DNA of 64,000 nt from Planctomycetota bacterium (GTDB lineage Bacteria > Planctomycetota > Phycisphaerae > FEN-1346), in NCBI GenBank assembly GCA_030602705.1, contig JAUVZF010000005.1:2663-66662 (forward strand), written 5' to 3'. A program made the translations under genes and the position numbers. The first letter of the stretch is position 1. Each line of letters begins with the position of its first letter. Positions 17,571 through 48,551 of this stretch are shown one piece after another. A model generated the notes under the pieces. The model did no database searches. It was not told the origin of the DNA and was given only the letters and a program-made list of their open reading frames with translations.

Positions 17571-17822
17571 CTAGAGTTGATCTTTCTGTGGCGCACGAAT
17601 TAAATACAGATCCATCTGGCGCGAGTATTCGAGGAGCCCGTCGTTCTGCATTCTGGTCAAGTGTTTCTCGAGGCGGTCGCGGGCGGCCAGGATTCTCCCT
17701 CCCCGGATGCCTGCTGCCAGGAGCAGGTCCGCCTCGCGAATCCTCAGTTTGCCGCCGGCACGGTGGACCTGTTCATAGATTCCGCGAGCCACCGGCGGCA
17801 AAGCGGATTTGATTCCGGACAT
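17571..17822 (-). CDS. Small hypothetical protein, possibly wHTH-like. It may be the C-terminal part of a longer gene interrupted by an in-frame TAG at 18012-18014.
   Basis: It is in the same frame as the 18012..18311 ORF. The 190-nt gap between them is open in that frame. Confidence 0.3.
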   Translation of the reverse strand: MSGIKSALPPVARGIYEQVHRAGGKLRIREADLLLAAGIRGGRILAARDRLEKHLTRMQNDGLLEYSRQMDLYLIRAPQKDQL

Positions 17823-18011
17823 CTCATACCCGCCAAGTAGTTTCAGAACCTTCAGGGCATCCGCGTCCTGCTCATCGACCTCGCATTGTTGAGCGGCCTG
17901 CTCCTTGTTCCCGGCAATGGCTTTCGCGTAGAGGTCTCGGTCATGTGGGCGCGAATCGAGGAACTGCGATTCGGCCGACCGGATGGTGGAGTTCAGTTCG
18001 GTGATCTCGTC

Positions 18012-18311
18012 CTACATGGCGCAGATTCTGACGGCCTCCTTGCGTGCTCGCGCAATCCAGGTATTCATGGCTGAGGCGAGTTTGGCCTGGCGGCGTCGTT
18101 CTTCAATGTACATTGGGCCCAGTTCCCGTTGGACGGCCTGCATCGCTTCTTGCCAAGTCGCTTCACGGAGCGCCTTCTCCGCCTCCACGATTTGCGCGTC
18201 CAATTGTGCGAGGGTTTGCTTCATATCGACAGATGTGCTCTCTTTTTGCCCTCTCAGCCTCTCGAACTGCGATTTGCGGTCTGCGACCATGTTAGCGGCT
18301 GTTTTCATCAT
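18012..18311 (-). CDS. Small coiled-coil protein (99 aa).
   Basis: ORF only; lower GC3 than the surrounding cluster. Confidence 0.35.
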   Translation of the reverse strand: MMKTAANMVADRKSQFERLRGQKESTSVDMKQTLAQLDAQIVEAEKALREATWQEAMQAVQRELGPMYIEERRRQAKLASAMNTWIARARKEAVRICAM

Positions 18312-18348
18312 GCGCTCCTTTCGTGGTTGATCATGTCTCAGGTCGGCC

Positions 18349-18930
18349 TCAGCGAATTGAGCCGGAGGTCCTATTCTTGAGTTTCCTCATTGCCCTCTGT
18401 CCTTTGGCAGTCAGGCGACAAGCCCCATCGGCCGCCACGTCGATGAAGTCCTGCCGTCCCAAGGAATTGCAGAGCATCCTGGCATAAGCATTGCTGAGGC
18501 CCATTTTCATTCGAACGGTTCCCACCCTGCCGTGGTCGGCGGCGTCGATGATGATCTCGAGCGCCTCCAGTTCGCTTCCGCCAGGGAGGGCTACGCCGCC
18601 CTGGCGGTCGTGTATGTCGCCGATTTCCCATCCGAAGTCGAAGACCCTGGACTGCTCGTGCTTAAGATCCGCCCGGAGTTCGTTGGCCCCCTCAACCGCG
18701 ACGTTCAGTTCCTCGCGGACCGCCGCGATACTGTCCAGTTGACTGTCTATTTCGTCGGCCAGTCTCCGGCACCCGATGTCCGACGCTTCCAAACCCAAGG
18801 CGTCCAGCCTGGCCTGAAGTTTGCGGACCCTCTCTTGCCCGTATCGGATCGTACTTTGGAGGCCCTCTGCGCGAGTGAGAGCATCTTGCAGTTCGTGCCT
18901 CAACCGAGCAATCCTGTCTTGGGTCTGCAT
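18349..18930 (-). CDS. Coiled-coil protein with a C-terminal wHTH of the cluster-specific family.
   Basis: C-terminal LSNAYARMLCNSLGRQDFIDV matches the recurring x-YA(R/E)-x-(I/L)-C-R-x-L motif. Confidence 0.5.
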   Translation of the reverse strand: MQTQDRIARLRHELQDALTRAEGLQSTIRYGQERVRKLQARLDALGLEASDIGCRRLADEIDSQLDSIAAVREELNVAVEGANELRADLKHEQSRVFDFGWEIGDIHDRQGGVALPGGSELEALEIIIDAADHGRVGTVRMKMGLSNAYARMLCNSLGRQDFIDVAADGACRLTAKGQRAMRKLKNRTSGSIR

Positions 18931-18977
18931 GCAGGGCGACTCCTTTGATCAGGCTGAGTGCAAACTTGGTGCCACAC

Positions 18978-19682
18978 TCACACCTTGCTCACCGAAGAGG
19001 CCACGACTCCCTGGCCGTTGCACGTGAGGCAGTGTTGGCGCATGCGGCGTTTGCCGCGGGCCGTTTTCAGCGTATGCCGCCCCGTGCCATCGCAGTCTTG
19101 ACACATCGCGGGGTTCTTGATCGCCGGGACCTCCCCCGTGCCGCCGCAGGCGAGGCAACTCAGGTTGTCCGTATTGTCCGGCTGTATACCTGTCCCCTTG
19201 CAGAAGGCACACTGTGTCATGCCCCGGCGTTTGGTTTTGCGCATGACTGCGGCACGCGCCCTGGCTATCAGACGTTGGCCGTTGCAGACGAGGCAGCGCT
19301 GCCGCACGGGCCTCTTGCCCTTGGCAGTTCGCTTCATCTGATGCCCGGTTCCATCGCACGCCGGACACTTCACCGGGTCCTCGATCACGGGAACCACGCC
19401 TGTGCCACGACAGGCCAGGCAATGGAGGCGGTCCGTCGTGTTGGGTTGGACGCCGGTTCCGTTGCAGAACACGCAGGGCAGGACAGGCTGGTTCGCGTGG
19501 ATTTCTCCGGTTCCGCCGCACACCTGGCAGTTCGACAGAGCGGAAAGGCAGCCGAAAGGATCTTTGCCGGTGCCCCGGCAGAAAGCGCACTTAATCGTGC
19601 CGGTCGTCGGCTTGGGTTTGGCACGGGTTGCAGTTGCGGGGGTTCGTTTGATCTTCTTCCTTTGCAACTTGGCTTTTCCCAT
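18978..19682 (-). CDS. DnaJ-type zinc-finger repeat protein, with about eight CxxCxGxG units.
   Basis: CAFCRGTGKD...CQVCGGTGE...CVFCNGTGV...CLACRGTGV...CPACDGTGH...CLVCNGQ...CAFCKGTGI...CLACGGTGE...CQDCDGTGR. Basic N-terminus. Confidence 0.7.
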   Translation of the reverse strand: MGKAKLQRKKIKRTPATATRAKPKPTTGTIKCAFCRGTGKDPFGCLSALSNCQVCGGTGEIHANQPVLPCVFCNGTGVQPNTTDRLHCLACRGTGVVPVIEDPVKCPACDGTGHQMKRTAKGKRPVRQRCLVCNGQRLIARARAAVMRKTKRRGMTQCAFCKGTGIQPDNTDNLSCLACGGTGEVPAIKNPAMCQDCDGTGRHTLKTARGKRRMRQHCLTCNGQGVVASSVSKV

Positions 19683-19850
19683 CTTGTTTTCCCCTAACTA
19701 TGGGCAGCGCGCCGGCGGATATCTCTGCGAGTCTGCCGCATCGGCGGCGCAATTGATGCTTGAGTCCTGAATTTGGTCTCCGTCGGGCTATGGGGTCCGC
19801 ACCGTTCGCTTTTCAGTCCGCGTGTGCCATCAGTCAGACAACTTGCTCCT

Positions 19851-20303
19851 CTAGCCCGCCACAACTCCCTGGCCTTTGCAGGTGAGGCAGTACTGACGCA
19901 TGCGTCGCTTGCCACGGAACGTCCGCAATGTATGCCGGCCGGTGCCATCGCAATCCGGGCACTTGACCGAGTCCTTGATGGCGGCGACTTCCCCCGCGCC
20001 GCCACAGACCAGACAGTGAAGGCGGTCTGTGGTGTTGGGCTGCACGCCCGTTCCCTTGCAGAATGCACACATGCGCGTGGGCCCCTTGACAGGGCTCTTT
20101 CCGGTTCCGCCGCAGACCTGACAGTTCGACAGGCGGGAAAGCGAACCGAAACGATCCTTGCCCGTGCCCTCGCAAAAAGCGCACACGCCGTTGCCGACCT
20201 TGCGCTTCGGGGCAACAGTGGTTTTGGGTTCAACCCTTGGGTTGCCCTTCTTCCCCTTCGGTGAACTACCCCCTGCGGTCACTTTTGACTTGGCTCTTGG
20301 CAT
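19851..20303 (-). CDS. DnaJ-type zinc-finger repeat protein, paralog of 18978..19682.
   Basis: CAFCEGTGKD, CQVCGGTGKS, CAFCKGTGVQ, CLVCGGAGE, CPDCDGTGRH. About 70% identical to its neighbour over the repeats. Confidence 0.65.
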   Translation of the reverse strand: MPRAKSKVTAGGSSPKGKKGNPRVEPKTTVAPKRKVGNGVCAFCEGTGKDRFGSLSRLSNCQVCGGTGKSPVKGPTRMCAFCKGTGVQPNTTDRLHCLVCGGAGEVAAIKDSVKCPDCDGTGRHTLRTFRGKRRMRQYCLTCKGQGVVAG

Positions 20304-20494
20304 CTATCGGCCTCCTGTTCTGTTGAGCCCAAATTGCCGGCTATCACAAACAACCAATCCGCCGCGCGCCGCTGCAATTCACGTAAGCGCCGGTTCTCGC
20401 AAGAAGGTGCCCCACCCCTCCTGCAGTGGGCTTTTCGTCAGGCTCCGGACGGTCGGCTCCGGCGCTTCAACCTTCTTTCCCAGAGTGCTGCTGT

Positions 20495-21901
20495 TCAACC
20501 GCCTTCGACGGACAACGGCGCAAACATCTCGTCCATCTCTCCTGCCAAATCGTCCTTGAGACTGCCGAGAACGGTCATGGAATGCGCCTTCCGATACAGG
20601 GAAACCAATTCAAGGTCGTCGTTGATGTTCGGCAGATTGATTATTCCGTGGTCCGGATGGAAGTAACTGTATTCTTCCCAGTTATCCGATCGGAGCCAGC
20701 CATTGCGCTTGCATTTGTCGTACAGATCGGTGCCTGGAAACGGGACGACAATGGAGGCAGTGCTGAACTCGAGGCCGAGGGTCTCGATCAGGTCAATGGT
20801 GGCCTCGATGTCCGCTCTCGTCTCTGTGGGGTAGCCGATCATGAAATTCCCCGTCGGCGTTATTCCAGCGTCGTTTGTCATCTGGACGGCCTTCTTTATC
20901 TGGGAAGGTTTGGTCCTCTTGCCACACTCATCCAGTATTCTCTGGCTGCCGAATTCAATTCCGTAGAATATGACTTGGCAGCCGGCTGCCTTCATTTCTT
21001 CAAGAATATCCTCCGAAACTGTGTCCACGCGGCTATCACAGTTCCAGGCAACCTTCCGGCTCAGGCCTCTTTCGATCATGCCCCGGCAAAGCGAGACGAG
21101 CCACTTCTTGTTCGCCGTGATCAGTTCATCGGTGAAGCGCACGATCCTGATCCCGTACACGTCGGCGATCTCGGCCAGTTCGTCGAGCACATTCTGCACG
21201 GACCTTCGCCGCAGGACCGGCCAGAATCGCGGAACGGAGCAGTAGTCGCAGTGGAAGGGACAACCTCTGCTGGCTGAGACCGCTGTGAACCGCCCCCGGC
21301 TCTTTCCCAACCTGGTCACGTAGAGGTGATTCGGCAACAGATCTCTTGCCGGGAAAGGCAGCGAGTCAAGGTCCTCGATAAACGGACGAGCTGGCGTAAC
21401 CACGACGTGGTCTCCGTCCTTGAACGTGAGTCCTTTCACCTTCTCGAGACTCCCGTCGCCGGAGAGCGCCCGAGCCAGTTCGACGATGGTGATCTCGCCC
21501 TCTCCCCTGACGCAGAAGTCAATGAACGGCTTCTCAATGAGTTCCCTGTGGCAGGGATGGACGTGCGCCCCTCCAAGAACGATCTTTGCTGGAGGATAGG
21601 CCGCCCTTATCTGCCTACAGGCGTCCAGGGCGCTCTTCAAGTTCGAGGTGAAAACGGTAAGGCCGACGAGGTCCGGCTGTGCCTCCGCCACCTGCTGGGC
21701 AAGTCTGTCATGGGGCATCCCGATTGATTTTGCATCCACGATCTCAACCCCGGCCCCCTGTGCCCTCAGTGCCGAGGCGAGATAAGCCAGCCCGATGGGC
21801 GGGAACTTCGAGCCGGTCCGGACCGCTTGCCGGATCACCTTTTCTTTGGTGATGTTGACCGAACGTCGTAGCGGGTCAACAAGAACGCACTTGAGGGTCA
21901 T
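20495..21901 (-). CDS. B12-binding-domain radical SAM protein.
   Basis: N-terminal cobalamin-binding Rossmann region (IGLAYLASALRAQGAGVEIVD...LVGLTVFT) followed by the radical-SAM cysteine triad SRGCPFHCDYCSVP. Confidence 0.85.
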   Translation of the reverse strand: MTLKCVLVDPLRRSVNITKEKVIRQAVRTGSKFPPIGLAYLASALRAQGAGVEIVDAKSIGMPHDRLAQQVAEAQPDLVGLTVFTSNLKSALDACRQIRAAYPPAKIVLGGAHVHPCHRELIEKPFIDFCVRGEGEITIVELARALSGDGSLEKVKGLTFKDGDHVVVTPARPFIEDLDSLPFPARDLLPNHLYVTRLGKSRGRFTAVSASRGCPFHCDYCSVPRFWPVLRRRSVQNVLDELAEIADVYGIRIVRFTDELITANKKWLVSLCRGMIERGLSRKVAWNCDSRVDTVSEDILEEMKAAGCQVIFYGIEFGSQRILDECGKRTKPSQIKKAVQMTNDAGITPTGNFMIGYPTETRADIEATIDLIETLGLEFSTASIVVPFPGTDLYDKCKRNGWLRSDNWEEYSYFHPDHGIINLPNINDDLELVSLYRKAHSMTVLGSLKDDLAGEMDEMFAPLSVEGG

Positions 21902-22080
21902 GTAGTAGTTTCCCCTTCTTCGTTCTCGGTTTCGCCTTTTTCGCCCTGCTCCTCCGGACTCGGTTCACGCTCGTCGCCGCGCGTTTCCTTGGACCCACCA
22001 AACATGCCGCCCACCATGTCGGTGATCTTGTTTGCCGTGTCGCTAACGACTCTGACCACACGCGTAACTGTGTCCATCAT
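21898..22080 (-). CDS. 60-aa peptide with a hydrophobic N-terminal half and a highly acidic C-terminal half, start-overlapping the downstream radical-SAM gene. Candidate substrate or partner peptide.
   Basis: MMDTVTRVVRVVSDTANKITDMVGGMFGGSKETRGDEREPSPEEQGEKGETENEEGETTT. Its stop overlaps the radical-SAM start. Confidence 0.35.
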   Translation of the reverse strand: MMDTVTRVVRVVSDTANKITDMVGGMFGGSKETRGDEREPSPEEQGEKGETENEEGETTT

Positions 22081-22092
22081 TGGTTCACTCCT

Positions 22093-22374
22093 TTACTGTT
22101 GTGATCGCTCCAGTTCCAACAAGAACTGCTCACCCTTCTCGGTAATCTCGTAGCCGGTTACGGTCGTTCCCCTTATATAGTCGCCCCTCCATAAAGACCG
22201 GCAAAGGATGGCGGCATACTTCGTTGAGAACCCCATCTCGGTGCCCACGGCCTCGGCCTTCACCTTTCCCAACTCATCCGCTTTCCCCAGTTCACGGATC
22301 AGTTTGAGCGCCTCTCGTTCGCTGGCCACGATTGATGCCATGTTCATGCCCTCCGAGGCCTTGGGGGCAGACAC
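22093..22374 (-). CDS. Small wHTH protein of the cluster family. Start is probably an internal Met near 22341.
   Basis: MGFSTKYAAILCRSLWRGDYIRG motif. Confidence 0.5.
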   Translation of the reverse strand: MSAPKASEGMNMASIVASEREALKLIRELGKADELGKVKAEAVGTEMGFSTKYAAILCRSLWRGDYIRGTTVTGYEITEKGEQFLLELERSQQ

Positions 22375-22408
22375 GCGAGAAACCGATTCCCGGCCGCGTC
22401 GATCAGGT

Positions 22409-22669
22409 TCATGATGCCGGCCCCGCTGTTCCAGAGAGAAGACGGTATTGGCATTTTTTTCTTTGCTTCACCGCGTCGTCTACCAGTTTGAGTATCGCAT
22501 CCTCATCTCGGCGGCGCCCCTCCTGTGCAATCCGGTTATACTTGGCGAGGGCTTCTCTGGCGCGGCCGGCCACAAGCAGTCTGCCCGCCTCCGAATAGAG
22601 CCCGACCATTCGAGCCCAGATTTCGGCAGCCGTCTCGGTCCGTCCTTCTTCAGCACCCTTCACGGTCAT
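22409..22669 (-). CDS. Small hypothetical, helical or TPR-like protein (86 aa).
   Basis: ORF only. Confidence 0.3.
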   Translation of the reverse strand: MTVKGAEEGRTETAAEIWARMVGLYSEAGRLLVAGRAREALAKYNRIAQEGRRRDEDAILKLVDDAVKQRKKCQYRLLSGTAGPAS

Positions 22670-23487
22670 GGTGCTCCCTGGTTCGCCTTATCGCCAAGCG
22701 TTTGACGTTCGTGCTGCGTTTGCGGCGCGCATGGGACAGGCTTGCACTGTTGGCTCAGCAGGTCCCGCCACAGGCCGGTTGTTTCCGGCGGAACCTCGTG
22801 CCGCGGTGATGGGTCCGCGGCCGCTGCCGGCTGCTGCTCGTGCTGCGTTTGCGGCGCGCGTGGGACAGGCTGTTGGCTCAGCAGGTCCCGCCACGGTCCG
22901 GTTGTTATTTCCGGCGGAACCTCGCGCCCCGGTGATGGGCCCGCGGCTGCTGCCGGCGTCTGCTCCTCGCCTATTCCACGAAGATGTCGCACGAACCCCC
23001 TCATCTGCTCCCTGCGCCTGGCCGACTGCTCCCGCCAGGCCTCTCGCTGCTTCGCGGTCTCTTCCTTATGCTTTCTAATGAGCGCGCGCATATCTTGCCG
23101 CCTAGTCGTCCCCTTTCCCGAAGGCGGCGGCTGGTGCTTGGGGCGAGAGGGCCGCGCCACCACCTTGTCCGGCCCAACCTCGGGCTGTTTATTGGCAGCC
23201 GCGGATATCCATTTCGCGTATTTTTCATCCGCCGACAAACGAGGCCCCTGCCGTTGTTCTTCGCGCTGCTTCTTGCCGATCGCTCCCATTCCTAAGTCCG
23301 TGATCCTGACCCTTCCCGCGGCGGACACGTCAAGGAAACCCCTCCTGCCCACTGAGGCCAGCACCGTTCTGGCATAATCGACGCGCCATCCCATGTGGTT
23401 GGCGATCCGCACCTCGTGAAGTTCGCCGTCGCCCTCTTCCAGCAGAAACTCCATGATCTCCTTCTCATCAGGAGTAGGCATGCTCAC
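22666..23487 (-). CDS. N-terminal wHTH protein with a long disordered tail containing a ~125-bp tandem duplication.
   Basis: N-terminus ...HMGWRVDYARTVLASVGRRGFLDV. The repeated peptide PSPxxEVPPExTTGxWRDLLSQQ occurs twice, and the DNA repeat lies at about 22680-22930. Confidence 0.5.
   Translation of the reverse strand: MSMPTPDEKEIMEFLLEEGDGELHEVRIANHMGWRVDYARTVLASVGRRGFLDVSAAGRVRITDLGMGAIGKKQREEQRQGPRLSADEKYAKWISAAANKQPEVGPDKVVARPSRPKHQPPPSGKGTTRRQDMRALIRKHKEETAKQREAWREQSARRREQMRGFVRHLRGIGEEQTPAAAAGPSPGREVPPEITTGPWRDLLSQQPVPRAPQTQHEQQPAAAADPSPRHEVPPETTGLWRDLLSQQCKPVPCAPQTQHERQTLGDKANQGAP
22680..22930. repeat. Tandem direct repeat (2 units, ~125 bp, ~90% identical) within the coding sequence.
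   Basis: gttcgtgctgcgtttgcggcgcgc(a/g)tgggacaggc...ccggcggaacctcg is repeated. Confidence 0.6.
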
Positions 23488-23867
23488 GCTCCGTCTGCCG
23501 ACGGGGCGTTACGCTCTCCCCGCCTTGGGTTCCTCTTGCGAAGATGCGCGACAAGGTCCCTCCCCTCCCGGCGAATCCACTTGATTTCCGACCTGGACCT
23601 GCCTCGTATCTCATGGATGTCGTCCTTGCATCGTGCGCGGAGTTCCTTTACGGCTTCTCGTCTCTGTTGCTTGTTCACCTCGCACAGCGCCTTACGTGCC
23701 TCACGGCCCGCTTGCCAGTCCTGCATCCAGGTCGCGACGTCGCCACGACGGTACCGGCGTTCATCCGCCGCGGTCCGTCGGGTCTTGCGGTTTGACTCAC
23801 TGAGTCGCTGGCGTAACTCTTGGCAGTCGTGCCGCCGGGCGCCCGCATTGAAAGCGCTTACCCCCAT
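23484..23867 (-). CDS. Hypothetical basic protein (127 aa).
   Basis: ORF only; highly Arg-rich. Confidence 0.35.
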   Translation of the reverse strand: MGVSAFNAGARRHDCQELRQRLSESNRKTRRTAADERRYRRGDVATWMQDWQAGREARKALCEVNKQQRREAVKELRARCKDDIHEIRGRSRSEIKWIRREGRDLVAHLRKRNPRRGERNAPSADGA

Positions 23868-23875
23868 GGATCACT

Positions 23876-24301
23876 TCACCCCCTTTTCACGGAGCGCTGG
23901 GGGGCTACTTGCTGTTGGTTTCGCCTAACCCCGCGCCTGCTCTTCTCCGTTTTCGATTTCGTCTGCCGCCTCTTGTCCTTGACCTTCCGGGGGACGAAGC
24001 CTTCGCCCTGACAGTGCAGGCAAACAAGATTCTTATCAGTGCCGGCGCCTGTCCCGCCACAGACCTGACAGGTGTCGTAAGGCTTGTCCACGTACACGCT
24101 CTTACGGCCGTGGCAAACCGGGCATTCCGCCAAAGACGGCACGCCGTAGAAGTGCCCCAATCCGGTGCCTTTGCAGAATGCGCAAGGAAGTTTTGCCAGT
24201 TCCCGCACGGCTTCATGAGCGCCCCGCTTTCTCCCCTTCCCAGGCGCCTCGTTCGCAGCATTCTTTCGGACGTGTTTCGTTTTCACTGCTGTTCTTGCCA
24301 T
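23876..24301 (-). CDS. DnaJ-type zinc-finger repeat protein (paralog).
   Basis: Start at MARTAVKTKH. Repeats CAFCKGTGLG, CPVCHGRKS, CQVCGGTGAG, CLHCQGEGF, with a basic C-terminal tail. Confidence 0.6.
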   Translation of the reverse strand: MARTAVKTKHVRKNAANEAPGKGRKRGAHEAVRELAKLPCAFCKGTGLGHFYGVPSLAECPVCHGRKSVYVDKPYDTCQVCGGTGAGTDKNLVCLHCQGEGFVPRKVKDKRRQTKSKTEKSRRGVRRNQQQVAPQRSVKRG

Positions 24302-24459
24302 TTGCGTGATTTCCTCTCGCTCATTGAGCCGGACACTTGACGGGCATCCCATGCCGCATGCCCCGCCATGTAAGGGACACGCCACGCCTTGGCGCGCCCG
24401 ATGCCGAAGCCCTCAGGCTCGGCGACTGCACCGGTTCGCCGATAACCTCCCTCGCCGTC

Positions 24460-24684
24460 TCACTTGCGGAACTTGCCCGCCACGTCTTTCCCCGTGGGAG
24501 TCAAGCCGAATCGGTGCGACTCCGGCTGTTGTGCTATACAACCGGTTCGGAGCAGCCTCCGACAAATGAGTCGCGCATAACGAGGCTCGATATTCAGCCT
24601 CTTGGCCAGCGCAAATGCGGTGCAGTCGCCTGCATCGGCAATACTCTGGAGTACTTCCCGTTCAACCCCAACGACGCTAACCAT
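24460..24684 (-). CDS. Small wHTH protein of the cluster family.
   Basis: LAKRLNIEPRYARLICRRLLRTGCI. Confidence 0.5.
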   Translation of the reverse strand: MVSVVGVEREVLQSIADAGDCTAFALAKRLNIEPRYARLICRRLLRTGCIAQQPESHRFGLTPTGKDVAGKFRK

Positions 24685-24736
24685 ATTTTCACCCTCCTCC
24701 CTTCAGCCCAGGGCGTCCCCCGACGCGTCGCCGCTC

Positions 24737-24946
24737 CTACTCGCTGCCGGAGAACACGTGCTCAGCCTTGCTCAAAGGTACGTAGTGATAGCCAACCTTG
24801 CGCAGTTTTTTCTTGCGGATGAGGATGTTGCACAGTTGTTCGGCGTAACCGCTGGTTAGGCTTAGCAACTGACCGATTTTCCGCGGCGTTGCTTTCTCGC
24901 CCAAGGTTGCAACAGCATCCATCACGTCCTTCTCCCTTCCGGTCAT
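24737..24946 (-). CDS. Small wHTH protein of the cluster family.
   Basis: Start at MTGREKDV, preceded by AAGGAGGTG. Motif LTSGYAEQLCNILIRKKKL. Confidence 0.55.
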   Translation of the reverse strand: MTGREKDVMDAVATLGEKATPRKIGQLLSLTSGYAEQLCNILIRKKKLRKVGYHYVPLSKAEHVFSGSE

Positions 24947-25018
24947 CGCAGCCACCTCCTTATCTGTAGCCTGTCTGCTCTTGTCCGACAACGCGCCGGG
25001 CAGAACTCCGAGGCCAAT

Positions 25019-25933
25019 CTACTGCCTTCCCATATCCTTCGCGAACACTCCGCGGCAGCACGGGGCGCCGTCGGGGACGGTTGCGCTGAACGAGAAACCG
25101 ATCGCCGGGTTGATGGCGCGTGCGGCGCAGTCCATGTGTTCGGCACATGAGACCGAACACGGTATCCACCCCGGCGAGGCGTCCAAGCCCATGCTTCGTA
25201 TGACGCTGTGCCGCCAGCAGGCGAGGACTTGTATGGTGCAGCGGTCGGCGGTTTGCTCGCCGAGCGTCACTTGCTGTGCGCCGGTAACGGCGGCCATGGC
25301 GCCAACGGTTCTGGCGATGGCAGAGGGTCCATCTCCGTGGATGCCGACTTTTTGCTTGAACCGCCGATAATTCGCTGCGACATCCTGGAGTGCCCCCTGC
25401 CGGATTTCGTGGAGGAAGTGCCAGGAAACGCCCTTCTGGACGTAACCCAGTTCCACCTTGCAGGTTTCGACGAGCGACTTGACCACGTAAATGACCCTGA
25501 TCCACTCCTTGCCGGCCAGTTCGAACTTGGCCCTGGTTGAGAGCCTCTTGACCAGCCGCTCGATTGAGTCGAAGGTTATGCCCTCGAACTCCGGCACAAG
25601 CCTTTCGAGTTTGTGTTGCGCCTGAAGGACGCGGGCCACGGCCTCCTTGTGCTTTCCCTGACCCTGGAGGACCTGCCCAAGCGTAACGTCGGGAAACGCG
25701 TCATCCGGCGCCGCTTCGACGGCCCTGTTCGCGTAGGAGGCGGCCCGGTCGATCCGGCCGCCCTTAAGGCATGCGTCCGCCAGATTGTTGAGCAGGGCCA
25801 CGTCGTTCGGGTTCTGCGCGAGGCCCTTCTTGTAGAAAGAGATCGCCTCCGCATAGAGCCCCTTCGTAGCGCTTCGGCGTCCTATGCGGAGCGCTTCGCT
25901 GGAACGGATTGCCTGTGCGCTATGGACGGTCAT
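25019..25933 (-). CDS. TPR-repeat protein with a C-terminal cysteine-containing domain of unknown function.
   Basis: N-terminal TPR-like repeats (YAEAISFYKKGLAQNPNDVALLNNLADACLKGGRIDRAASYANRAVEAAP). Confidence 0.55.
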   Translation of the reverse strand: MTVHSAQAIRSSEALRIGRRSATKGLYAEAISFYKKGLAQNPNDVALLNNLADACLKGGRIDRAASYANRAVEAAPDDAFPDVTLGQVLQGQGKHKEAVARVLQAQHKLERLVPEFEGITFDSIERLVKRLSTRAKFELAGKEWIRVIYVVKSLVETCKVELGYVQKGVSWHFLHEIRQGALQDVAANYRRFKQKVGIHGDGPSAIARTVGAMAAVTGAQQVTLGEQTADRCTIQVLACWRHSVIRSMGLDASPGWIPCSVSCAEHMDCAARAINPAIGFSFSATVPDGAPCCRGVFAKDMGRQ

Positions 25934-25949
25934 CGATCCATCTCCTCGG

Positions 25950-27778: not shown

Positions 27779-27851
27779 CAGCCGCGTTCCTTCACACGTC
27801 TTGCCCAGTCAGCGCGTACGGCTCTACGCCCAAGGTGTCCTTGAGCGGGTC

Positions 27852-29880: not shown

Positions 29881-29896
29881 CTCGAATTACCCCAGG

Positions 29897-35101: not shown

Positions 35102-35109
35102 TCCGATGG

Positions 35110-37928: not shown

Positions 37929-37932
37929 GGGA

Positions 37933-38687: not shown

Positions 38688-38696
38688 GACAGCCTC

Positions 38697-39262: not shown

Positions 39263-41560
39263 TCACCGATTCTCCTCTTCCAGCAGGACTTCCTCCCGTG
39301 GTGCGTCTGACAGACCGTGTCTGAACCGTCGTGGCGGCGGCTTTCTTGGCGGATGCGCCTCAAGAACCGGACGTTGCCATGCACGCTCGTGATGATGGCC
39401 GGCGTGAGTCGGGCAAGGCGGGGCATCGGCCGCGCCGCCGCCGTAGAGTTCGGCGCCCATGCGGTCGAGGGCGTCCGGTCCCCGCACCTCTTGAGGAAAC
39501 TGGCGGACCGCCGTTACGACGCAGCCGATGGACGAGGCGAAGTCGGCGATCTCATCGACGCAAGCGAGTTGCTGGCACCGTTTGGCGGCGCAGAACGCGC
39601 AGTCCGTCGCGGGCGCCAGGAAGTTGCAGACGATGCGTGCTACGGGGATTCCGGCCGCCGTCACCGTCTCGAGCATCCGCTGCATCTCGAGTTTGCCCAT
39701 GGCCTCGGCGATCGTGACGGCGACCAGTTCCGTTTGGGCCGGGTCGGTCAGGGCGGCGTGCATCGTCTTGACGGCGTTGGTTGAGCGCACCATTCGCTCC
39801 GCAAGCGTGGCCAGGTGCTCGACGGGGCGCCTCTGTTGGTACTTGAGGATGGCCCGGTAGGTTACACGGAGCCAATCCTTGATTAGTTCCGGGAAGGCCA
39901 GGAGTTTGAGCATGTGCCCGGTGGGCGCCGGGTCGAGCACGTAGAGGTCGAACCGGTCGGCCTCGGTGAAGTCAAAGAGACGCTCCATCACGAGCACTTC
40001 CTCGACGCCCGGCGGGTAACTCTTGACGTACTCGAGCAGGGTGCCGCGGTCGAACTTGATCCGGTCCAGGTTCATGACGCCGATTTCGTGGCTTTCCCAG
40101 GCCTCGAAGGCGGCGTTGATGTTCTCGACGTACTCGGCACGGAACTTCTCGTAGAGCGCCGCGGCGTCCAGTTCCAGCGCGGTCAGGTTGTCGCGGCCGG
40201 GAACCGCGGTCAGGGAGTCGCCGATCTCCAGGTCGAGCGAGTCTCCGAGCGAATGCGCCGGGTCGGTCGAGACCACGAGAACTCGCTTCTCGGGGTAACG
40301 CCGCGCCAGGCGCAGCGCGGTGCTTGCCGACACGGACGTCTTGCCGACGCCGCCCTTGCCGGCGAAGATGAGGAACCGTTTGCCCGCTTCCACGGCCAGT
40401 TCGCTGGGAGGGGCGATTGAGCCGGACACGCTCACGCGGTTCGGCCCGGCCGGCTGCGGGGGCATCGGCTGCACGGAATCATTCTCGCCGGCCAGGACCT
40501 GGCCGTAGCGCACCAGGGCTTCCTGTCCGCGTATCTCTTCGGGGGAAAGTGGAACCTGGAGGATGCGGCGGGGAGCGAACTGCTCCTGAATCTGCTTCAG
40601 ATACGGCGTTTGCCCTTCCGCCTGCGACCGGCAGAAGGGGCAGTCCGGGTCGGCACGTCGCACGCGGTTGACGATCACGTTGCCGGCGGCAATGCCCTGG
40701 CGGTCGAGCGCCCGGGCGAGGCGCACCGTCTCGGCGACGCCCATCTCCTCGGGGATGGTCACCATGACGAACTCGCATCGCGCGGGGTCGGTGAGGAGTT
40801 TCCCGACAAACTCCATGTGCTTAATCAATTTGCTCAGGAACTGCGGCACTCCCCGTCCGCCCCTTTCCTGGCCGGGAATATTGAACAGACCCAGGCCCTG
40901 CAGGCCGGCCGAGGTCCGGTGATACTTGTTGAACGACCTCTTGAAGAGCGTGACCCAGCGAGCGTATTTTTCGGGCATCGTCAGCAGCCGCAGAGTGTGG
41001 CCCGTCGGCGCGGTGTCGATGACCACCAGGTCGCAGCGTGTGGAGGGGAGCGGATCGTGCGGGATGCCGCGCTGCAAGTACTCCGCCACGGCGGCGAAGA
41101 TCATCAGGTCTTCCATGCCGGGCAGACGGAAGGCGAGGAAATCGCGGATATCCGCCTGGTTGGAGAAGACGGTGCCGCGGGCCATTTGCTTGAGGTGCTT
41201 GCCGTACCTGCGTTTGAAGGTCGCCAGCAGGGAGGGCGGATCGACCTCGACCGCCGAGAGGTTGGGGACACCGCGCACGCGAACGATCTTCGGCCCCACG
41301 GACTGGTCAAGACTGTCGCCGAGCGAGTGGGCCGGATCGGTCGACATGATCAGCACCTGGCGGTCGGGCATGGCTTGGACCAGGCGCAGAGCGGTGGCGG
41401 CCGACGAGGTCGTCTTGCCGGTTCCACCCTTGCCGCCGAAGAACAGCAGTTGCAGAGAAGACGGGGCGCTCAGGAAACTCGGCGCCGCCTGCTTGCCGCC
41501 GCTATCCTGCTGGACAGCCTGTTGCTGTGTGGCTTCGGCTAGTAACGCTTGCGCGCTCAT
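39263..41560 (-). CDS. ArsA/Get3-family ATPase, internally duplicated (second paralog, 765 aa).
   Basis: FFGGKGGTGKTTSSAATALRL / STDPAHSLGDSL / IDTAPTGHTLRLL in half 1, and FAGKGGVGKTSVSASTALRLA / STDPAHSLGDSL / LDPAPTGHMLKLL in half 2. Confidence 0.8.
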   Translation of the reverse strand: MSAQALLAEATQQQAVQQDSGGKQAAPSFLSAPSSLQLLFFGGKGGTGKTTSSAATALRLVQAMPDRQVLIMSTDPAHSLGDSLDQSVGPKIVRVRGVPNLSAVEVDPPSLLATFKRRYGKHLKQMARGTVFSNQADIRDFLAFRLPGMEDLMIFAAVAEYLQRGIPHDPLPSTRCDLVVIDTAPTGHTLRLLTMPEKYARWVTLFKRSFNKYHRTSAGLQGLGLFNIPGQERGGRGVPQFLSKLIKHMEFVGKLLTDPARCEFVMVTIPEEMGVAETVRLARALDRQGIAAGNVIVNRVRRADPDCPFCRSQAEGQTPYLKQIQEQFAPRRILQVPLSPEEIRGQEALVRYGQVLAGENDSVQPMPPQPAGPNRVSVSGSIAPPSELAVEAGKRFLIFAGKGGVGKTSVSASTALRLARRYPEKRVLVVSTDPAHSLGDSLDLEIGDSLTAVPGRDNLTALELDAAALYEKFRAEYVENINAAFEAWESHEIGVMNLDRIKFDRGTLLEYVKSYPPGVEEVLVMERLFDFTEADRFDLYVLDPAPTGHMLKLLAFPELIKDWLRVTYRAILKYQQRRPVEHLATLAERMVRSTNAVKTMHAALTDPAQTELVAVTIAEAMGKLEMQRMLETVTAAGIPVARIVCNFLAPATDCAFCAAKRCQQLACVDEIADFASSIGCVVTAVRQFPQEVRGPDALDRMGAELYGGGAADAPPCPTHAGHHHERAWQRPVLEAHPPRKPPPRRFRHGLSDAPREEVLLEEENR

Positions 41561-41578: not shown

Positions 41579-42484
41579 CTATGCGCCACGCAGGGCCGTC
41601 CACCGCAGGCCGTTCTCCCAAGCGTCTGACGGCACCGGAGCGGAGGCGGTGGCCGGCGGCCGGTCCACCTGGTTCTGTTCGAGGGCTTCAGGTCCGGCAG
41701 TACGGTCATCTTTCTCTACAGTCTCGATCCCGCCCCGCTTGCGAACTACCTGCAAGCCGGTGTCGGTGATCTGACATCTGCGGGAGCCGGCTCCGCGCAA
41801 CAACCCCTTCTTGATGAGCGACTTCTGGAGCAGGTTGACGTACGCTGGTGTGTGGCGGGCTTCCCTGGACAGAACAATCCGTTCGCCGAGAGACGCACGG
41901 GCGTAAAGTCGCAGGATCTCCAGTTCGCTCGCGAGGACGGCCGGGAGGTGGGCGGCAGTCGAACCCGCCGCGACCCTTCTGGCCGCCGCGCTCGCGGTGG
42001 CCGCTCTACGGTTGCCGGTTGAAGGCTGCTCGCCTATGCGGAAGGTAAAGGCAGGCCGCGGCACCCGTCCCCCGACCGACACGGCTTTTGTCTCTTCGCC
42101 CCGCGGCTTCACGCTCACGACGCCGGCGCCGCGGCAGGCGATGCACGTCAGGCGCGAGCCTTGCTGTCGGCCCGTGCCGCGGCAAGATGCACACTTCTCC
42201 ACGGGCGGCTTAACCGTGACGTAACCTTTGCCGCGGCAGGCGTTGCAGGTGACGTTGCCTCGGGGTCGTTCTTCGCCTCGGCCCTTGCAGAGGGCACACC
42301 TGACGGCCGGCGGACGGATCTCGACCGTGCCTTTGCCCCGGCACACCGAGCACTTCGAGCCGGCCGGCTTCTCGCCCTTGCCCCGGCAGAAGGCGCAGGC
42401 CTGAACGGGGTCCTCGATGATCGCATAGGCCGCGCCGGTTCCCCGGCTGCTGTCTTTGTCGTCCTTCACTGGACGCCATTGCAT
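41579..42484 (-). CDS. DnaJ-type zinc-finger repeat protein with a C-terminal wHTH.
   Basis: CAFCRGKGE/CSVCRGKGT/CALCKGRGE/CNACRGKGY/CASCRGTGR/CIACRGAGV, then ...PAYVNLLQKSLIKKGLL. Start at MQWRPV after GGAGG. Confidence 0.6.
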   Translation of the reverse strand: MQWRPVKDDKDSSRGTGAAYAIIEDPVQACAFCRGKGEKPAGSKCSVCRGKGTVEIRPPAVRCALCKGRGEERPRGNVTCNACRGKGYVTVKPPVEKCASCRGTGRQQGSRLTCIACRGAGVVSVKPRGEETKAVSVGGRVPRPAFTFRIGEQPSTGNRRAATASAAARRVAAGSTAAHLPAVLASELEILRLYARASLGERIVLSREARHTPAYVNLLQKSLIKKGLLRGAGSRRCQITDTGLQVVRKRGGIETVEKDDRTAGPEALEQNQVDRPPATASAPVPSDAWENGLRWTALRGA

Positions 42485-42619
42485 GATGTGGCCTCCGCAC
42501 AATCCGGCGATCCTCTCCGGCGGGGCATGGCAGGTCCGGCACAGGCCGGTTGGTCAGGCCTGGAGCGGTCCCGCCGTCACGGCCTGTCCGCGCTATGCCA
42601 ACCATCCAGCCGGAGGCGG

Positions 42620-44207: not shown

Positions 44208-45227
44208 CTAGGGCGCCTCCACCGGTTCGACGAGCAGGACCTCGGGGCGGTCGGTGTCGCGAAGGTCGAGTCCTTGCGGCGGGCAGAAACGCTTGAGGAG
44301 GTCCGCCGCCGCCTTGACGCGTTCGAACTTCTGCGGGAGGTTAGGGTCTGCGGGATCGGTGTCCGGATGAAAGCGGCGCATGGCGGACCGGGCGGCATCC
44401 GCCACCATCTGCGGGGTGATGCGTTCCGCCAAGTCGATCTCGCGCCGGGCCGCATCCAGGTCAGCCACCCGCGCACGATGCAACTGGACCGTGGTGAAAC
44501 TGTACGGCGGCAGTGGGCCGACGATGCGGAAGTTCAGGGCGCCCTGTTCCTGCCGGTCGGCTTCTGCGACCCGGGCTTCGAGCCGGTCACGCCCCTCGGC
44601 ATTAACCAGGAAGGCCGCGTTGATGATCATGGCCTCGTGGCGGGTCTGGTGCCGGACGGTCCGGCGCGCCACCTGTTCCCACTGCGGCAGGATGCGGTCT
44701 TCGAGGGCACGCTTCCTGTCATCGAGGCGGTCCTTGACGAGTTTGCCCAGGCCCAACCGTTCGGCCATCGACCGGCCGGGCGGGAGTTCGGCAATCCGGT
44801 TCTTGTGTTCCACGATGTCTTCTTCGCGGCCTATCTCCCGGAACACCTGCTGGATGTCCGGCCACATGGCCACCACGTCGATTTCGATCAGGCCGTCGAC
44901 TTCGGCGAGCAAAGCCTGCAGGTTGTCGCGGTTGGTCCGGAGCATCTCGGCCACCTGGACCTCGCTGTCAAGCACGGTTCCGAACTTCATAGGCAAGACG
45001 GTATGGCCGGCGTTCATAACCGTCTCAGAAACGAACTGGTGCTGGGCCAGGTGCCTGGCCAGTTCCTCCTTCGGCACCGAGGTGACGTCGCCGTTGCCGG
45101 TGTCGCTGACGACGGCGGCAATGCTGCCGTAGGCGATGCTATGGACGCTGGTCGCCTCGCCACCGACGCCGATCGGCCCGAAATCGGCGGATGCGCCGTC
45201 CGCGATGAATCCGTAGGTGTACTTCAT
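44208..45227 (-). CDS. GvpF/L-family protein fused to a C-terminal J-domain (Hsp70 co-chaperone module).
   Basis: GvpL core (YTYGFIADGA...IAAVVSD...LPMKFGTV...IVGPLPPYSF) followed by RREIDLAERITPQMVADAARSAMRRFHPDTDPADPNLPQKFERVKAAADLLKRF, which contains the J-domain HPD motif. Compare ...AYRKLAMKYHPDRN...KFKEIKEAYEVL. Confidence 0.75.
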   Translation of the reverse strand: MKYTYGFIADGASADFGPIGVGGEATSVHSIAYGSIAAVVSDTGNGDVTSVPKEELARHLAQHQFVSETVMNAGHTVLPMKFGTVLDSEVQVAEMLRTNRDNLQALLAEVDGLIEIDVVAMWPDIQQVFREIGREEDIVEHKNRIAELPPGRSMAERLGLGKLVKDRLDDRKRALEDRILPQWEQVARRTVRHQTRHEAMIINAAFLVNAEGRDRLEARVAEADRQEQGALNFRIVGPLPPYSFTTVQLHRARVADLDAARREIDLAERITPQMVADAARSAMRRFHPDTDPADPNLPQKFERVKAAADLLKRFCPPQGLDLRDTDRPEVLLVEPVEAP

Positions 45228-47419
45228 CAGGGGGCGTCTCCTTTTGCCGGCGGCTCGGCCGATTCGCCGATGACCTCACGCACCGCGGCATCCATATCGG
45301 CCGCCGTAAGGGCCATCTTCGAGAGCGGCAATTCCTTCTTCTCGGCAAGGTGGATGAACCGCCGGATGGCGTTAAGCGCGGCACAGCGGCAGATAGCGGC
45401 AATCCGGGCGCCGCTGGCGTGACCGCAGGCTTTTGCGATCCGCTTCAGGTCCACGTCGTCGGCCAGCGGCTTGCCGCGCATGTGCACCTTGAAGATCTCC
45501 AGTTTCGCGTCCTCGTCCGGAAACGGCAGTTCGATGATGAGGTCGAAACGGCCTTCTCGCAGGAGTGCGGGGTCGAGCATGTCCATGCGGTTCGTGGCCG
45601 CCAGGACAATGACGTCTTTGAGTTCTTCGATGCCGTCCATTTCGCTGAGGAACTGGCTGATGACGCGGTCTGCGGCGCCCTGGGCGGTGCCCCGCCTGGG
45701 CACCAGGGCGTCGATTTCGTCGAAGAACACGATGCAGGGCGCCGCCTGCTTGGCCTTGTGGAAGACCTCTCGCACGCCGCGCTCGCTCTCGCCCACCCAC
45801 TTGGACATAAGTTCCGGCCCTTTGACGGGGATGAAGTTGAGGCTGCTCTCCTTGGCCAGCGCTTTCGCCGCCAGCGTCTTTCCGGTGCCGGGGGCGCCGT
45901 GCATGAGGATGCCCTTGGCTGGCCGGGTCTTGGCGTGCTCGAAGAGTTTGCGGTGCTTGAGCGGCCACTCGACGGCTTCGCGGAGCGACTGCTTGACCTC
46001 CTGGAGGCCGCCGACGTCCGCCCAACCGACGTTGGGCACTTCGACGAAGACCTCGCGCATGACGGACGGCTCGACCTCGCACAGGGCTTCGCGGAAGTTG
46101 TCCATGGTGACCTCAAGCGTCTCGAGCGTCTCGTAGGGTATCTCTTTGAGTTCGAAGTCGATGTCGGGGAAGATGCCGCGCAGCGCTGCCATGGCGGCTT
46201 CGCGGCCGAGGGCCTCGAGGTCGGCGCCGACGTAGCCGTGTGTGATCTCGGCGATCTTGTCGAGGTCAACGTCTTCGGCCAGGGGCATGCCGCGGGTATG
46301 GATCTGGAGGATGTCGGCCCGGCCGTTGCGGTCCGGAATGCCGATCTCGAGTTCCCGGTCGAACCGCCCCGGCCGCCGCAGGGCGGGGTCGACCAGGTTG
46401 GGCAGGTTCGTGGCGCCGATGACGATGATCTGGCCGCGGCTCTTCAGGCCGTCCATCAGGGCGAGCAACTGGGAGACGACGCGTTTTTCGAGTTGCTTCT
46501 CGCCGCCCAACTCCGCGCGCTTCGGCGCGATGGCGTCGATCTCGTCGAGGAACACAATCGCCGGGGCGTGCGCGGAGGCGTCCTCGAAGATCTGGCGCAG
46601 GTGAGCCTCGCTCTCTCCGTAGTACTTGTGCATGATCTCCGGGCCGCTCAGGTGGGTGAAATAGGCGTCGGTCTCGTTGGCCACCGCCCGCGCGATCAGC
46701 GTCTTGCCGCATCCCGGAGGACCGTGAAGAAAGACCCCTTTCGGCGGTTCAATGCCAAGCCGCTCGAAGACCTCGGGGTACTTCAGCGGCAGTTCGATCA
46801 TCTCGCGTACCCGCTGGGTCTCACGCGCCAGCCCTCCGATGTCCTCATAGGTGACCCTTGCGCGAGCCGCGGGTTCGCCGGCCTTGGCTTCGCCGCGCAT
46901 CTCAATCGTGGTGGTCGATTGAATGAGCACGGCGCCCTTGGGCACGGTGGTAACGACCTCGAAATCCTGTGTCCGCGAGCCGAACATCGTCGCGCGCACG
47001 GAATCCCCCGCCGTAAGCGGCAGGCTCTCCAAAAGCGTTCCGATGTAACGCATGTCCCGCTTGCCGCGCAGGCCGCGCATCTCTGTCAGCGGCGCCAGGA
47101 CGATCTTCCTGGCGGGGGCGGCGTCGGCCTTCTCGATCTGGACGTGCTCGTCGATCCCGGCGCCCGCATTGCCGCGAAGGATGCCGTCGATGCGGATCAT
47201 GTCGGTGCCGCGATCCTCGACGTACGTCGGCATGACCTTCGCCGGCGTCGCACGCTTGCCGCGCACCCAGACAACGTCGCCGACCTTCACACCGAGCGGA
47301 TCGAACAGTTTCGGGTCGAACCGTGCGAGGCCGCGGCCGACGTCCTTGGACGCGGCTTCGGCCACCTTCAGCGAGAGCGTTGGGGCCTTCTTCTCTTTCT
47401 TCTTCGCGCTCGGAGTCAT
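45227..47419 (-). CDS. Cdc48/VCP-like AAA+ ATPase (N-domain, D1 and D2).
   Basis: Cdc48-type N-domain ([22 protein letters not shown]...[12 protein letters not shown]), two Walker A sites ([15 protein letters not shown]; [15 protein letters not shown]), and second-region-of-homology motifs. Start taken at MTPSAKKK. Confidence 0.85.
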
Positions 47420-47535
47420 GACGACTTTCCTGTTGCTCTCCCGCCGCTCGCCCGGTAGGCGCACGCCGCGGATGGGTATGCCGGCGCCGTCGCTTGCGTT
47501 CCTCGAGCCCGCCGCCTCAGGAGACCGGCAGTAAC

Positions 47536-48126
47536 CTATTCGCCTTTCTTCTTGAGGACGATCTCGAGGATGCCGTTCTCGTAGGAGGAGGTGACGTTCT
47601 CCTCGTCGACGACTGCGGGGAGCAGGACTTCCTTCTGGTACTTCCTCTTGCCCTCGGCCGAGAGCGTGAGCATGTCGCCCTTGACCTCCACGTGGATGTC
47701 GGCTTCCTGGATTCCCGGCAGTTCCGCGATGGCCCGGATGGTGTCGCCTTCCTCGAAGACGTCGACGATCGGCTCGCGCATTTCCTCGACGACCGGCCCC
47801 TTGGGGGTCTTCTTGATGTTGCCGAACGTCTCGACCTTCGGCTTGCCTCCGGCCATGGTGCGGACCGTGAAGCCGTAAACGCCTTTGATGTCCCTTCCGC
47901 GCCGCACGCCGGGAGGGATACCCCCGACGCGGAACTCGCCGGTCTTGCTCAGTTCCTCGCCCTTCTCGGCGAGTTCGGTGGCCTTGTCCACGAGGCTGCT
48001 GAGACCATTGATGAGCCCGCCAAGGCCAAGGCCCTTGAAGATGCCGCCAAGGTCAACCACGGGCGTGGCATCTTCCTCTGCGGCTTCCTCTTTCTTGTCC
48101 TGGTCTTTCTCTTCTTTTTTCGCCAT
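47536..48126 (-). CDS. Hsp20/alpha-crystallin-family small heat-shock protein (GvpH-like position).
   Basis: Start at [11 protein letters not shown] segment ...[34 protein letters not shown]...[13 protein letters not shown]. Confidence 0.75.
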
Positions 48127-48200
48127 GGTTCGATTCCTCTCTCGGTTTGTCGGCCCGGCGCCGCTTCCGATTGCGGAGGGTCTGCCCCGCGGCGCCTTGT

Positions 48201-48551
48201 TCACTCGTCGGACACGTTGGCGGCGGTCGCCATTTCCTCGATCCGGTCGGCCCGCTCCTCGACGATGGCGGTGATGCGGCGTGCTCTGGCAACCCGGCCT
48301 CTCAGGTTCTTCACCACTCCGCGCCACATGTCCGCCAGGATCGCTTGCGACTTCGGTGTCAACCGGTAAGCGCGCCTGGGCCTTTTGCCCGAATCGTCCA
48401 CGCATTCGGTCAGAAGGTCGCGGTTGACCATCCCCGCGCAGAGGTACTTCGTGTACTCAACGGAGTTCTCCAGGTGTTTGGCAACCTGGCGGAGGGTGAC
48501 CGTGTCGGTGTCGTCGAACAGGAGCAGGATGTGGTATTCGTTGGGCGTCAT
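48201..48551 (-). CDS. Small wHTH protein of the cluster family.
   Basis: LRQVAKHLENSVEYTKYLCAGMVNRDLL. Confidence 0.5.
   Translation of the reverse strand: MTPNEYHILLLFDDTDTVTLRQVAKHLENSVEYTKYLCAGMVNRDLLTECVDDSGKRPRRAYRLTPKSQAILADMWRGVVKNLRGRVARARRITAIVEERADRIEEMATAANVSDE

Follow-up and report, generated by a model that had tools for sequence, protein, structure and literature searches.

Gas vesicles are buoyancy organelles that also serve as genetically encoded ultrasound reporters, and the pathway of their assembly is poorly understood. The gas-vesicle clusters that have been well studied count 8-14 genes. A much larger cluster type, belonging to uncultured anaerobes including anammox planctomycetes, is found in the stretch described here, a 64-kb window of DNA from a Planctomycetota bacterium (positions 2,663 to 66,662 of contig JAUVZF010000005.1, assembly GCA_030602705.1; coordinates below are those of the window). 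About one-fifth of the some 55 cluster genes encode a small winged helix-turn-helix (wHTH) module, interleaved with zinc-finger proteins, Hsp70 and ArsA-like ATPases. A new winged-helix family, peculiar to this one type of gas-vesicle cluster, is the description that suits these modules best.

Several described systems resemble parts of the locus. GvpD and GvpE of haloarchaea and GvrA, GvrB and GvrC of Serratia are single-copy regulators likewise encoded in gvp clusters, and the sigma54 activator present here is GvrA-like; the wHTH family is distinct from this activator. Proteins consisting of a DnaJ zinc finger only (PF00684; anti-TRAP; plant BSD2-like) resemble the recurring partner domain of the wHTH rather than the wHTH itself. 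Such zinc-finger-only relatives are holdases or assembly chaperones, or specific protein binders, which agrees with the chaperone context proposed here, to which Hsp70, Hsp20 and a GvpL with a J-like, HPD-containing tail also belong. No wHTH fusion of them is described in the literature searched. The C-terminal domain of CheF, the adaptor of the archaellum switch, is likewise a small helix-helix-helix-strand-helix module. It dimerises through its beta-strand and binds CheY-P (PMC9126983). CheF differs in that it comes from archaea, occurs in a single copy, carries PH domains in the same protein and has no relation to gas vesicles. Compared with MarR and DtxR/MntR regulators, the family has neither the helices by which MarR dimerises nor the metal-binding domain of DtxR, and it occurs in 2-13 copies per cluster, within operons and in fusions. 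The most frequent weak Pfam neighbours are PF24409 (wHTH-PRTase_assc) and PF08100, whose scores lie far below the cutoffs and whose contexts differ. As to the clusters, associations of gvp genes with ArsA and with Hsp20 were noted in 2010 (PMC2963123), and gas-vesicle genes of Scalindua rubra in 2017 (PMC5486813). The winged-helix family, the zinc-finger proteins and the KPY repeats of gas-vesicle clusters have no description in the literature searched. The family merits a curated model; its genes are currently annotated only as hypothetical proteins.

Family membership, fold and nearest relatives

Twelve winged-helix domains carried by 11 proteins form one sequence family, and all the genes lie on the minus strand. 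They are listed below with the E-values obtained from a family hidden Markov model (HMM) or from leave-one-out HMMs.

18349-18930, minus strand: 193-residue protein with an N-terminal coiled coil and a C-terminal wHTH (domain about 18370-18594; AYARMLCNSL); HMM independent E-value 3.6e-30, leave-one-out 7e-19
22093-22341, minus strand: standalone 82-residue wHTH (domain 22102-22344; KYAAILCRSL); leave-one-out 4.9e-15
22666-23487, minus strand: 273-residue protein with an N-terminal wHTH (23257-23487; DYARTVLASV, without Cys) and a long low-complexity tail; leave-one-out 2.8e-9
24460-24684, minus strand: standalone 74-residue wHTH (RYARLICRRL), adjoining the zinc-finger gene 23876-24385; leave-one-out 1.3e-12
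24737-24946, minus strand: short standalone wHTH (GYAEQLCNIL) that forms a tandem pair with 24460; leave-one-out 3.4e-11
31591-32646, minus strand: wHTH, disordered linker of about 70 residues, DnaJ-type CXXCXGXG zinc finger (PF00684, 1.7e-12) and second wHTH; HMM domains 1.9e-26 and 4.7e-27; N copy 32407-32628 and C copy 31615-31839, leave-one-out 1.3e-7 and 2e-9
37933-38262, minus strand: divergent 109-residue wHTH (aligned over 38113-38256; without Y-A); HMM 6.2e-7, hhalign probability 92.7%
38259-38687, minus strand: 142-residue protein with an N-terminal wHTH (38472-38687; DYARIVCRGL) and a disordered tail; leave-one-out 4.6e-20
38697-38882, minus strand: short standalone wHTH (DYAEQICRDL), first of a three-gene tandem; leave-one-out 2e-14
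41579-42502, minus strand: DnaJ-type zinc finger (PF00684, 1.2e-10) with a C-terminal wHTH (41729-41947; AYVNLLQKSL); leave-one-out 3.4e-11
48201-48551, minus strand: divergent 116-residue wHTH (48336-48551; EYTKYLCAGM); HMM 5.9e-7, hhalign probability 93.6%

In an all-versus-all comparison within a 13-sequence database, phmmer links 18349 to 38259 (6e-14), 24737 to 38697 (1.7e-12), 38259 to 38697 (2e-10), 22666 to 38259 (1.5e-9) and 22093 to 18349 (2e-8). The family HMM, trained on ten core domains and run against all 882 six-frame open reading frames (ORFs) of the window, matches these ten and, in addition, the two untrained copies 48201 and 37933, whereas the best-scoring ORF after the 12 copies reaches E 0.12. 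Each of the ten core copies is also retrieved by a model built without it, at E-values of 1e-7 to 5e-20. Copies 48201 and 37933 are divergent family members. The copies align with one another beyond what a generic wHTH would allow, and the phmmer, family HMM and leave-one-out results rule out a chance or generic resemblance. All 12 lie within 18.3-48.6 kb, the HMM finding none in the remainder of the window.

The first-pass annotation, made from the letters alone, had proposed one family of small winged-helix modules, standalone and fused, and this is borne out by the HMM and phmmer comparisons and by the structure models below. The ORFs and motif strings that it quoted are present, as are the tandem runs 37933/38259/38697 and 24460/24737. 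Its list of members holds for the 11 proteins, although 31591, listed for its C-terminal copy, carries an N-terminal one as well, which makes 12 domains; it fails for the C-terminus of the GvpC-like protein at 52892 (HMM E 0.12; hhalign probability 67.6%; no Y-A..C motif), which is a borderline wHTH-like domain rather than a firm member. The ORF 17571-17822, with which the proposed span began, is unrelated (hhalign probability 0.3%) and is not part of the family.

The structure predicted by AlphaFold2 (AF2) for 22093 from a 77-sequence alignment, at a predicted local distance difference test score (pLDDT) of 82, is a canonical winged helix with a C-terminal helix. The domain, of about 75 residues, runs through helix H1, a short strand, H2, H3, a beta-hairpin wing and H4, and so displays the three-helix bundle, helix-turn-helix (HTH) and beta-hairpin wing of the wHTH fold. 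For 31591, AF2 folds both wHTH domains and the zinc finger at pLDDT 90-97 and places between them a disordered 70-residue linker below 50, with a predicted TM-score (pTM) of 0.45; the model is one of independent domains, like beads on a string.

The strict motif Y-A-x-x-h-C occurs in seven copies out of 12 and its Tyr in ten, the Cys being absent from 22666 and from the C copies of 31591 and 41579. Numbered from the conserved glycine of the turn, the Y-A..L-C residues occupy HTH positions 14, 15, 18 and 19. These are canonical core-packing positions, which argues that the motif marks the family structurally and does not form, as had been supposed, the surface of a recognition helix; the HTH numbering and the AF2 secondary structure both point to this assignment.

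Membership of a known MarR/TrmB/ArsR-type family was sought, and the copies fall into none at curated thresholds. Indeed, when all window copies were scanned, none scored above a Pfam or NCBIfam cutoff, the best sub-threshold matches being to HTH_24, MarR, PF24409 and the dimerisation wHTH of O-methyltransferases (PF08100). For MarR (PF01047 and PF12802), the copy that comes closest, 24460, attains 17.7 and 18.2 bits where 24.6 and 27 would be required, and the remaining copies score lower or give no match. The MarR architecture, about 140 residues with N- and C-terminal dimerisation helices, is not found either: the domain has about 75 residues and a single helix after the wing, and the standalone proteins measure 60-93 residues. 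Copy 24460 reaches 20.1 bits with HTH_24 (PF13412; cutoff 21.9), which matches no other copy. The DtxR/MntR model PF01325 matches none of the window copies and four of 146 representative proteins, and no metal-binding dimerisation domain follows the wHTH. PF24409 scores 12.7-14.5 bits in three window copies (cutoff 27) and falls below 1e-3 in 14 of the 146 representatives. Matches to PF08100 (cutoff 25.6 bits) are weak. The top sequence-profile match in the PDB is the C-terminal domain of CheF (7OD9; E 3.3e-5 over 62 residues), and as structural neighbours of the family the O-methyltransferase dimerisation wHTH domains are equally close.

Distribution, age and domain fusions

Among 1.84 billion representative sequences, a profile search retrieves 554 clusters (50% identity) at E of at most 1e-3 and 124 at E of at most 1e-10, a few of the low-end matches being generic HTH repeats. 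Related loci were located by a genome scan with an alignment of 22093 orthologs; these loci are partial, and orthology was judged by reciprocal tests made copy by copy. All 14 informative loci (L001, L004-L014 and L016-L018) belong to the same extended type of gas-vesicle cluster, with genes for Gvp, zinc-finger, ArsA, Hsp70 or radical-SAM proteins. Core gvp genes are seen in eight of them (L001, L006, L011, L012, adjacent to L013, L014, L017 and L018), and in six (L004, L005, L007, L008/9, L010 and L016) the accessory set is syntenic with that of the window. The family thus behaves as a gas-vesicle accessory class, co-localising with gvpA/F/L/K/N/O in unrelated genomes. The labels of the loci include Candidatus Brocadiaceae, Candidatus Scalindua rubra, Nitrospirota, Acidobacteria, Atribacteria, a metagenome-assembled genome (MAG) of Clostridia, and Omnitrophica. 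Their guanine-plus-cytosine (GC) content, at 34-59%, is lower than that of the window (about 64%), and each partial locus carries 2-13 copies.

The paralogs of the window are not each other's closest relatives. Their best identity to one another is 21-41%, and all 12 copies have external relatives closer than any in-window paralog. For six copies, a reciprocal ortholog in another locus outscores the best paralog. Of these, 22093 belongs to the best-conserved subfamily, with reciprocal orthologs in nine loci at 54-80% identity, followed by 22666 (five loci), 38697 (four loci: L001, L006, L007 and L011) and 18349 (three loci: L004, at 66%, L010 and L012). The remaining two, 24460 and 24737, each have a reciprocal ortholog in one locus, and outside the window 24737 has the orthologs P0066 and P0071, which are 65-68% identical to it. 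The product of 38259 is identical to the database protein P0001. Since orthologs in other loci outscore the paralogs at home, the expansion is ancient and has been maintained, and because old paralogs each keep their own orthologs, they are specialised rather than redundant. The burst of paralogs within one locus that had been put forward is contradicted by identities of at most 41%, by the six copies with reciprocal orthologs and by a multi-copy state conserved in many lineages.

The copies recur in fixed surroundings and in larger proteins. The order Hsp70, uncharacterised 150-residue protein, wHTH, zinc finger, wHTH is found in L001, L006 and L007 and, in variant form, in L008, L009 and L011. 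The zinc-finger domain DnaJ_CXXCXGXG (PF00684) is fused to the wHTH in 20 of the 146 representative proteins. Tandem arrays comprise three to seven copies; one of them, P0085, packs seven into 1112 residues on a contig that ends in a GvpO gene. In P0090, P0093 and P0105, KPY repeats are followed by three to five wHTH copies within one protein.

Possible functions of the winged-helix copies

The copies are tentatively regarded, with a probability of roughly 45%, as putative protein-docking or oligomerisation modules acting in chaperone-assisted gas-vesicle assembly and not as transcription factors, the binding of proteins and the identity of the partners being inferred. Through the wHTH copies, holdases of the zinc-finger type, scaffolds of coiled-coil or low-complexity sequence and perhaps the KPY protein would be linked to one another, or else to the Hsp70/ArsA machinery or the growing vesicle. 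Such tethering would organise the chaperone-assisted assembly of the hydrophobic shell proteins. This reading is favoured because of the fusions of wHTH and zinc finger, the tandem arrays, the translational coupling of the genes and the sigma54 activator already at hand. Indeed, the copies overlap or abut their neighbours by -4 to +12 nt, as in 37933/38259/ArsA and 22666/23484: 37933 shares 4 nt with the end of 38259 at its stop and is followed, after another 4 nt, by the ArsA gene 35877-37928. Gene 41579 is directly upstream of the ArsA gene 39263-41560. The CheF and O-methyltransferase dimerisation wHTH domains are counted as precedents for such a fold serving without DNA binding. Of the two functions suggested by the first-pass annotation, that of an adaptor for zinc-finger proteins therefore fits better, in view of fusions, arrays and coupling, and that of a regulatory set is the less likely. 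If the copies are docking adaptors, the cluster would encode a chaperone-driven assembly line and would supply a concrete parts list for its reconstitution.

Several observations weigh on the other side. Basic domains make up two-thirds of the family (median pI 8.8) and eight of the 12 window copies, and Arg or Lys commonly follows the motif Cys and commonly opens the wing. Among the nearest structures, DNA-binding domains, namely those of MarR, DtxR/MntR, CggR and HrcA, are in the overwhelming majority, and the CheF match is modest. The AF2 model of 31591 displays no confident packing of wHTH against zinc finger (pTM 0.45). Moreover, the arguments from operon embedding and copy number are ones of parsimony only, and protein binding stays putative.

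A possible, if rather doubtful, extension is that the wHTH copies, the KPY protein and the DnaJ-type zinc fingers together build a multivalent scaffold, combining domains, holdases and short linear motifs, that does not bind DNA and couples Hsp70 (through a J-like tail of GvpL) and ArsA/Get3-like ATPases to the growing vesicle. If true, this would be a new chaperone network for organelle assembly, in which the fold of a transcription factor has been repurposed for docking by some ten specialised paralogs.

It is unlikely that the copies are sequence-specific transcription factors forming a combinatorial regulatory set for the cluster, a role in which the standalone proteins would dimerise with themselves or with each other via H4 and the zinc-finger fusions would sense redox state or metals. 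The weak Pfam matches to HTH_24 and MarR agree with such a role, as do the basic character of most copies and the predicted DNA-contact residues, which vary among paralogs as expected for different operators. However, 34% of the family domains are acidic, including 22093 (pI 5.5), and in its subfamily the H3 face is apolar or acidic: among 57 orthologs, the base-reading positions of H3 are either variable and apolar (40, 44 and 45) or a conserved Glu (41), and the invariant residues are those of the wing (R57-G-T..T62-G-Y-E65) and of the N-terminus of H1 (S7-E8-R9). Twelve regulators would be many for a co-directional cluster in which only about six intergenic gaps exceed 150 bp, and their genes sit among structural and chaperone genes with which they are coupled in translation. 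Arrays of up to seven copies and fusions to coiled-coil, KPY, zinc-finger and low-complexity segments are atypical of transcription factors, and the copies lack any domain for dimerisation or sensing of the MarR or DtxR type.

Operators were sought as inverted repeats. Of the six larger intergenic gaps, two have palindromes, which are only GC-rich, and there is no motif in common; in four of the gaps, palindromes that are shared or specific to a paralog are absent. Scans for sigma70 promoters and for terminators stay at background level. Besides, a sigma54 activator with matching promoters is already there. Its gene (55248-56465) lies upstream of the cluster, of which the activator is a separate candidate regulator, and two perfect -24/-12 elements (TGGCAC-N5-TTGC) are found on the minus, coding strand. 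The one at 55062-55076 stands in the 756-bp gap upstream of gvpA and the one at 18960-18974 about 30 bp upstream of 18349-18930. With up to one mismatch, eight matches are counted where 4.4 would be expected, and no other match is perfect. Should the copies bind DNA after all, they would amount to an unusual density of regulators for one organelle.

Improbable, too, is a role in non-specific nucleic-acid binding, by which the copies would tether vesicles or the assembly machinery to the nucleoid for positioning or segregation, or to gvp mRNA for co-translational capture of the hydrophobic shell proteins. The wHTH with its C-terminal helix does resemble the chromatin and centromere proteins AspA and Sso10a (Foldseek ranks 7 and 28), with weak NCBIfam matches to Sso10a and Sul12a, many copies are basic, multivalent arrays would suit avidity, and SIMIBI-class (ArsA-like) ATPases are encoded next to them. 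Nevertheless, the AspA/Sso10a likeness is at the level of the fold only, one-third of the domains are acidic, the ATPases are by Pfam assignment ArsA/Get3-like and not ParA-type, and no precedent is known for the tethering of gas vesicles to the nucleoid.

Least probable is that the copies are structural proteins of the vesicle surface, contacting the GvpA lattice itself in the manner of GvpC and serving to recruit or stabilise further proteins associated with the shell: the family is strictly tied to gvp clusters, is fused to a coiled coil (18349) and to KPY repeats as possible periodic lattice binders, and a wHTH-like domain ends the GvpC-like repeat protein, but the known shell-binding protein GvpC uses amphipathic helical repeats and no wHTH, and the many distinct paralogs point to several partners rather than to one lattice.

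The gas-vesicle island and its neighbouring genes

The cluster occupies a block of about 40 kb (about 15.3-54.6 kb) in which all of the some 55 genes are on the minus strand. Apart from the winged-helix genes, it includes the following, each given by its first coordinate or its range.

54282, minus strand: GvpA
52892-54250, minus strand: GvpC-like protein with a 47-residue repeat and 60 wHTH-like residues at its C-terminus, whose membership of the family is not demonstrable (HMM E 0.12; hhalign probability 67.6%)
51063 and 48564, minus strand: two GvpN
47536, minus strand: Hsp20
45227, minus strand: Cdc48-like AAA+ protein
44208, 43453 and 29897, minus strand: three GvpL/F
43191, minus strand: GvpG
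42937, minus strand: double zinc ribbon protein
42620, minus strand: GvpO
39263 and 35877, minus strand: two two-domain ArsA-like ATPases
31242 and 29620, minus strand: GvpA-like genes
30834, minus strand: GvpK
27852, minus strand: Hsp70
25950-27308 and 20495-21901, minus strand: two B12-radical-SAM enzymes
25019, minus strand: TPR protein, following one of the B12-radical-SAM genes
52201, 41579, 31591, 23876, 19851 and 18978, minus strand: six DnaJ-type CXXCXGXG zinc-finger proteins
33061-33753, minus strand: proline-rich KPY repeat protein with a 24-nt tandem repeat

Copy 48201 is situated between GvpN (48564-49553) and the Hsp20 gene, and L014 has a family copy at a comparable place, between GvpO and an Hsp20-like gene. 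The coiled coil of 18349 gives weak coiled-coil/SMC matches.

The GvpL encoded at 44208-45227 ends in about 70 residues that form a sub-threshold J-like tail with an HPD motif (RRFHPDTDP; PF00226 E 1.4e-3, 19 bits against a cutoff of 27.8). A faint DnaJ match is also given by the GvpL of L014, and L013 has a gene for a full DnaJ domain near a wHTH. The J-like tail, Hsp70 and zinc-finger proteins devoid of a J domain suggest a split DnaJ system whose modules have been redistributed, in which the wHTH would be the docking or oligomerisation element.

The KPY protein consists of about 18 eight-residue repeats, K-[PD]-Y-x-P-[VA]-P-[LIV], and a conserved C-terminal zinc ribbon, and has no Pfam match. 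As a separate protein, it has orthologs in at least six other loci (L001 and L005-L009). Its gene is flanked by those of two paralogous small basic proteins (32740-33018 and 34305-34556) with repeated YSTG and HFTGT motifs and, likewise, no Pfam match. The GvpC-like gene contains 5.3 units of a 141-nt (47-residue) repeat, and its wHTH-like end is devoid of the family motif; the repeat of cyanobacterial GvpC typically has 33 residues. The product of 31242-31634 joins a GvpA/J-like part to a C-terminal CxxC...CxxC zinc ribbon and is 65-75% identical in L001, L006 and L011.

The B12-radical-SAM enzymes are conserved parts of the cluster (57-79% identity in L001, L004-L006, L010 and L013), a hint that vesicles may be modified post-translationally as they form. 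Five further proteins without a Pfam match (16592-17554, 15930-16646, 15311-15907, 34646-35101 and 27305-27778) are conserved and syntenic in several related clusters; 16592 is present in L004, L005, L006, L010 and L013, and 34646 directly follows Hsp70 in six loci. Between the sigma54 match and gvpA, a perfect 13-nt inverted repeat at 54952-54986 (CGTCGCGGCCGCG / CGCGGCCGCGACG, 9-nt spacer) could be a hairpin of the 5' untranslated region or an operator.

The island is flanked by two genes, 9505-10173 and 60589-62379, whose products would resemble serine recombinases at their N-termini (YVRVSTRQQ and YARRSTDMQ), and GC content drops from 0.67-0.70 at 1-8 kb to 0.58-0.62 at 8-16 kb. Taken together, these features of the DNA suggest a mobile island, in agreement with the spread of the cluster across phyla. 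Outside the island, the beta subunit of ATP synthase is 82% identical to a protein from a Planctomycetota MAG. In L014, a gene at 9228-10256, between a zinc-finger gene and GvpL, matches PF25216 (Volactin), an actin-like family.

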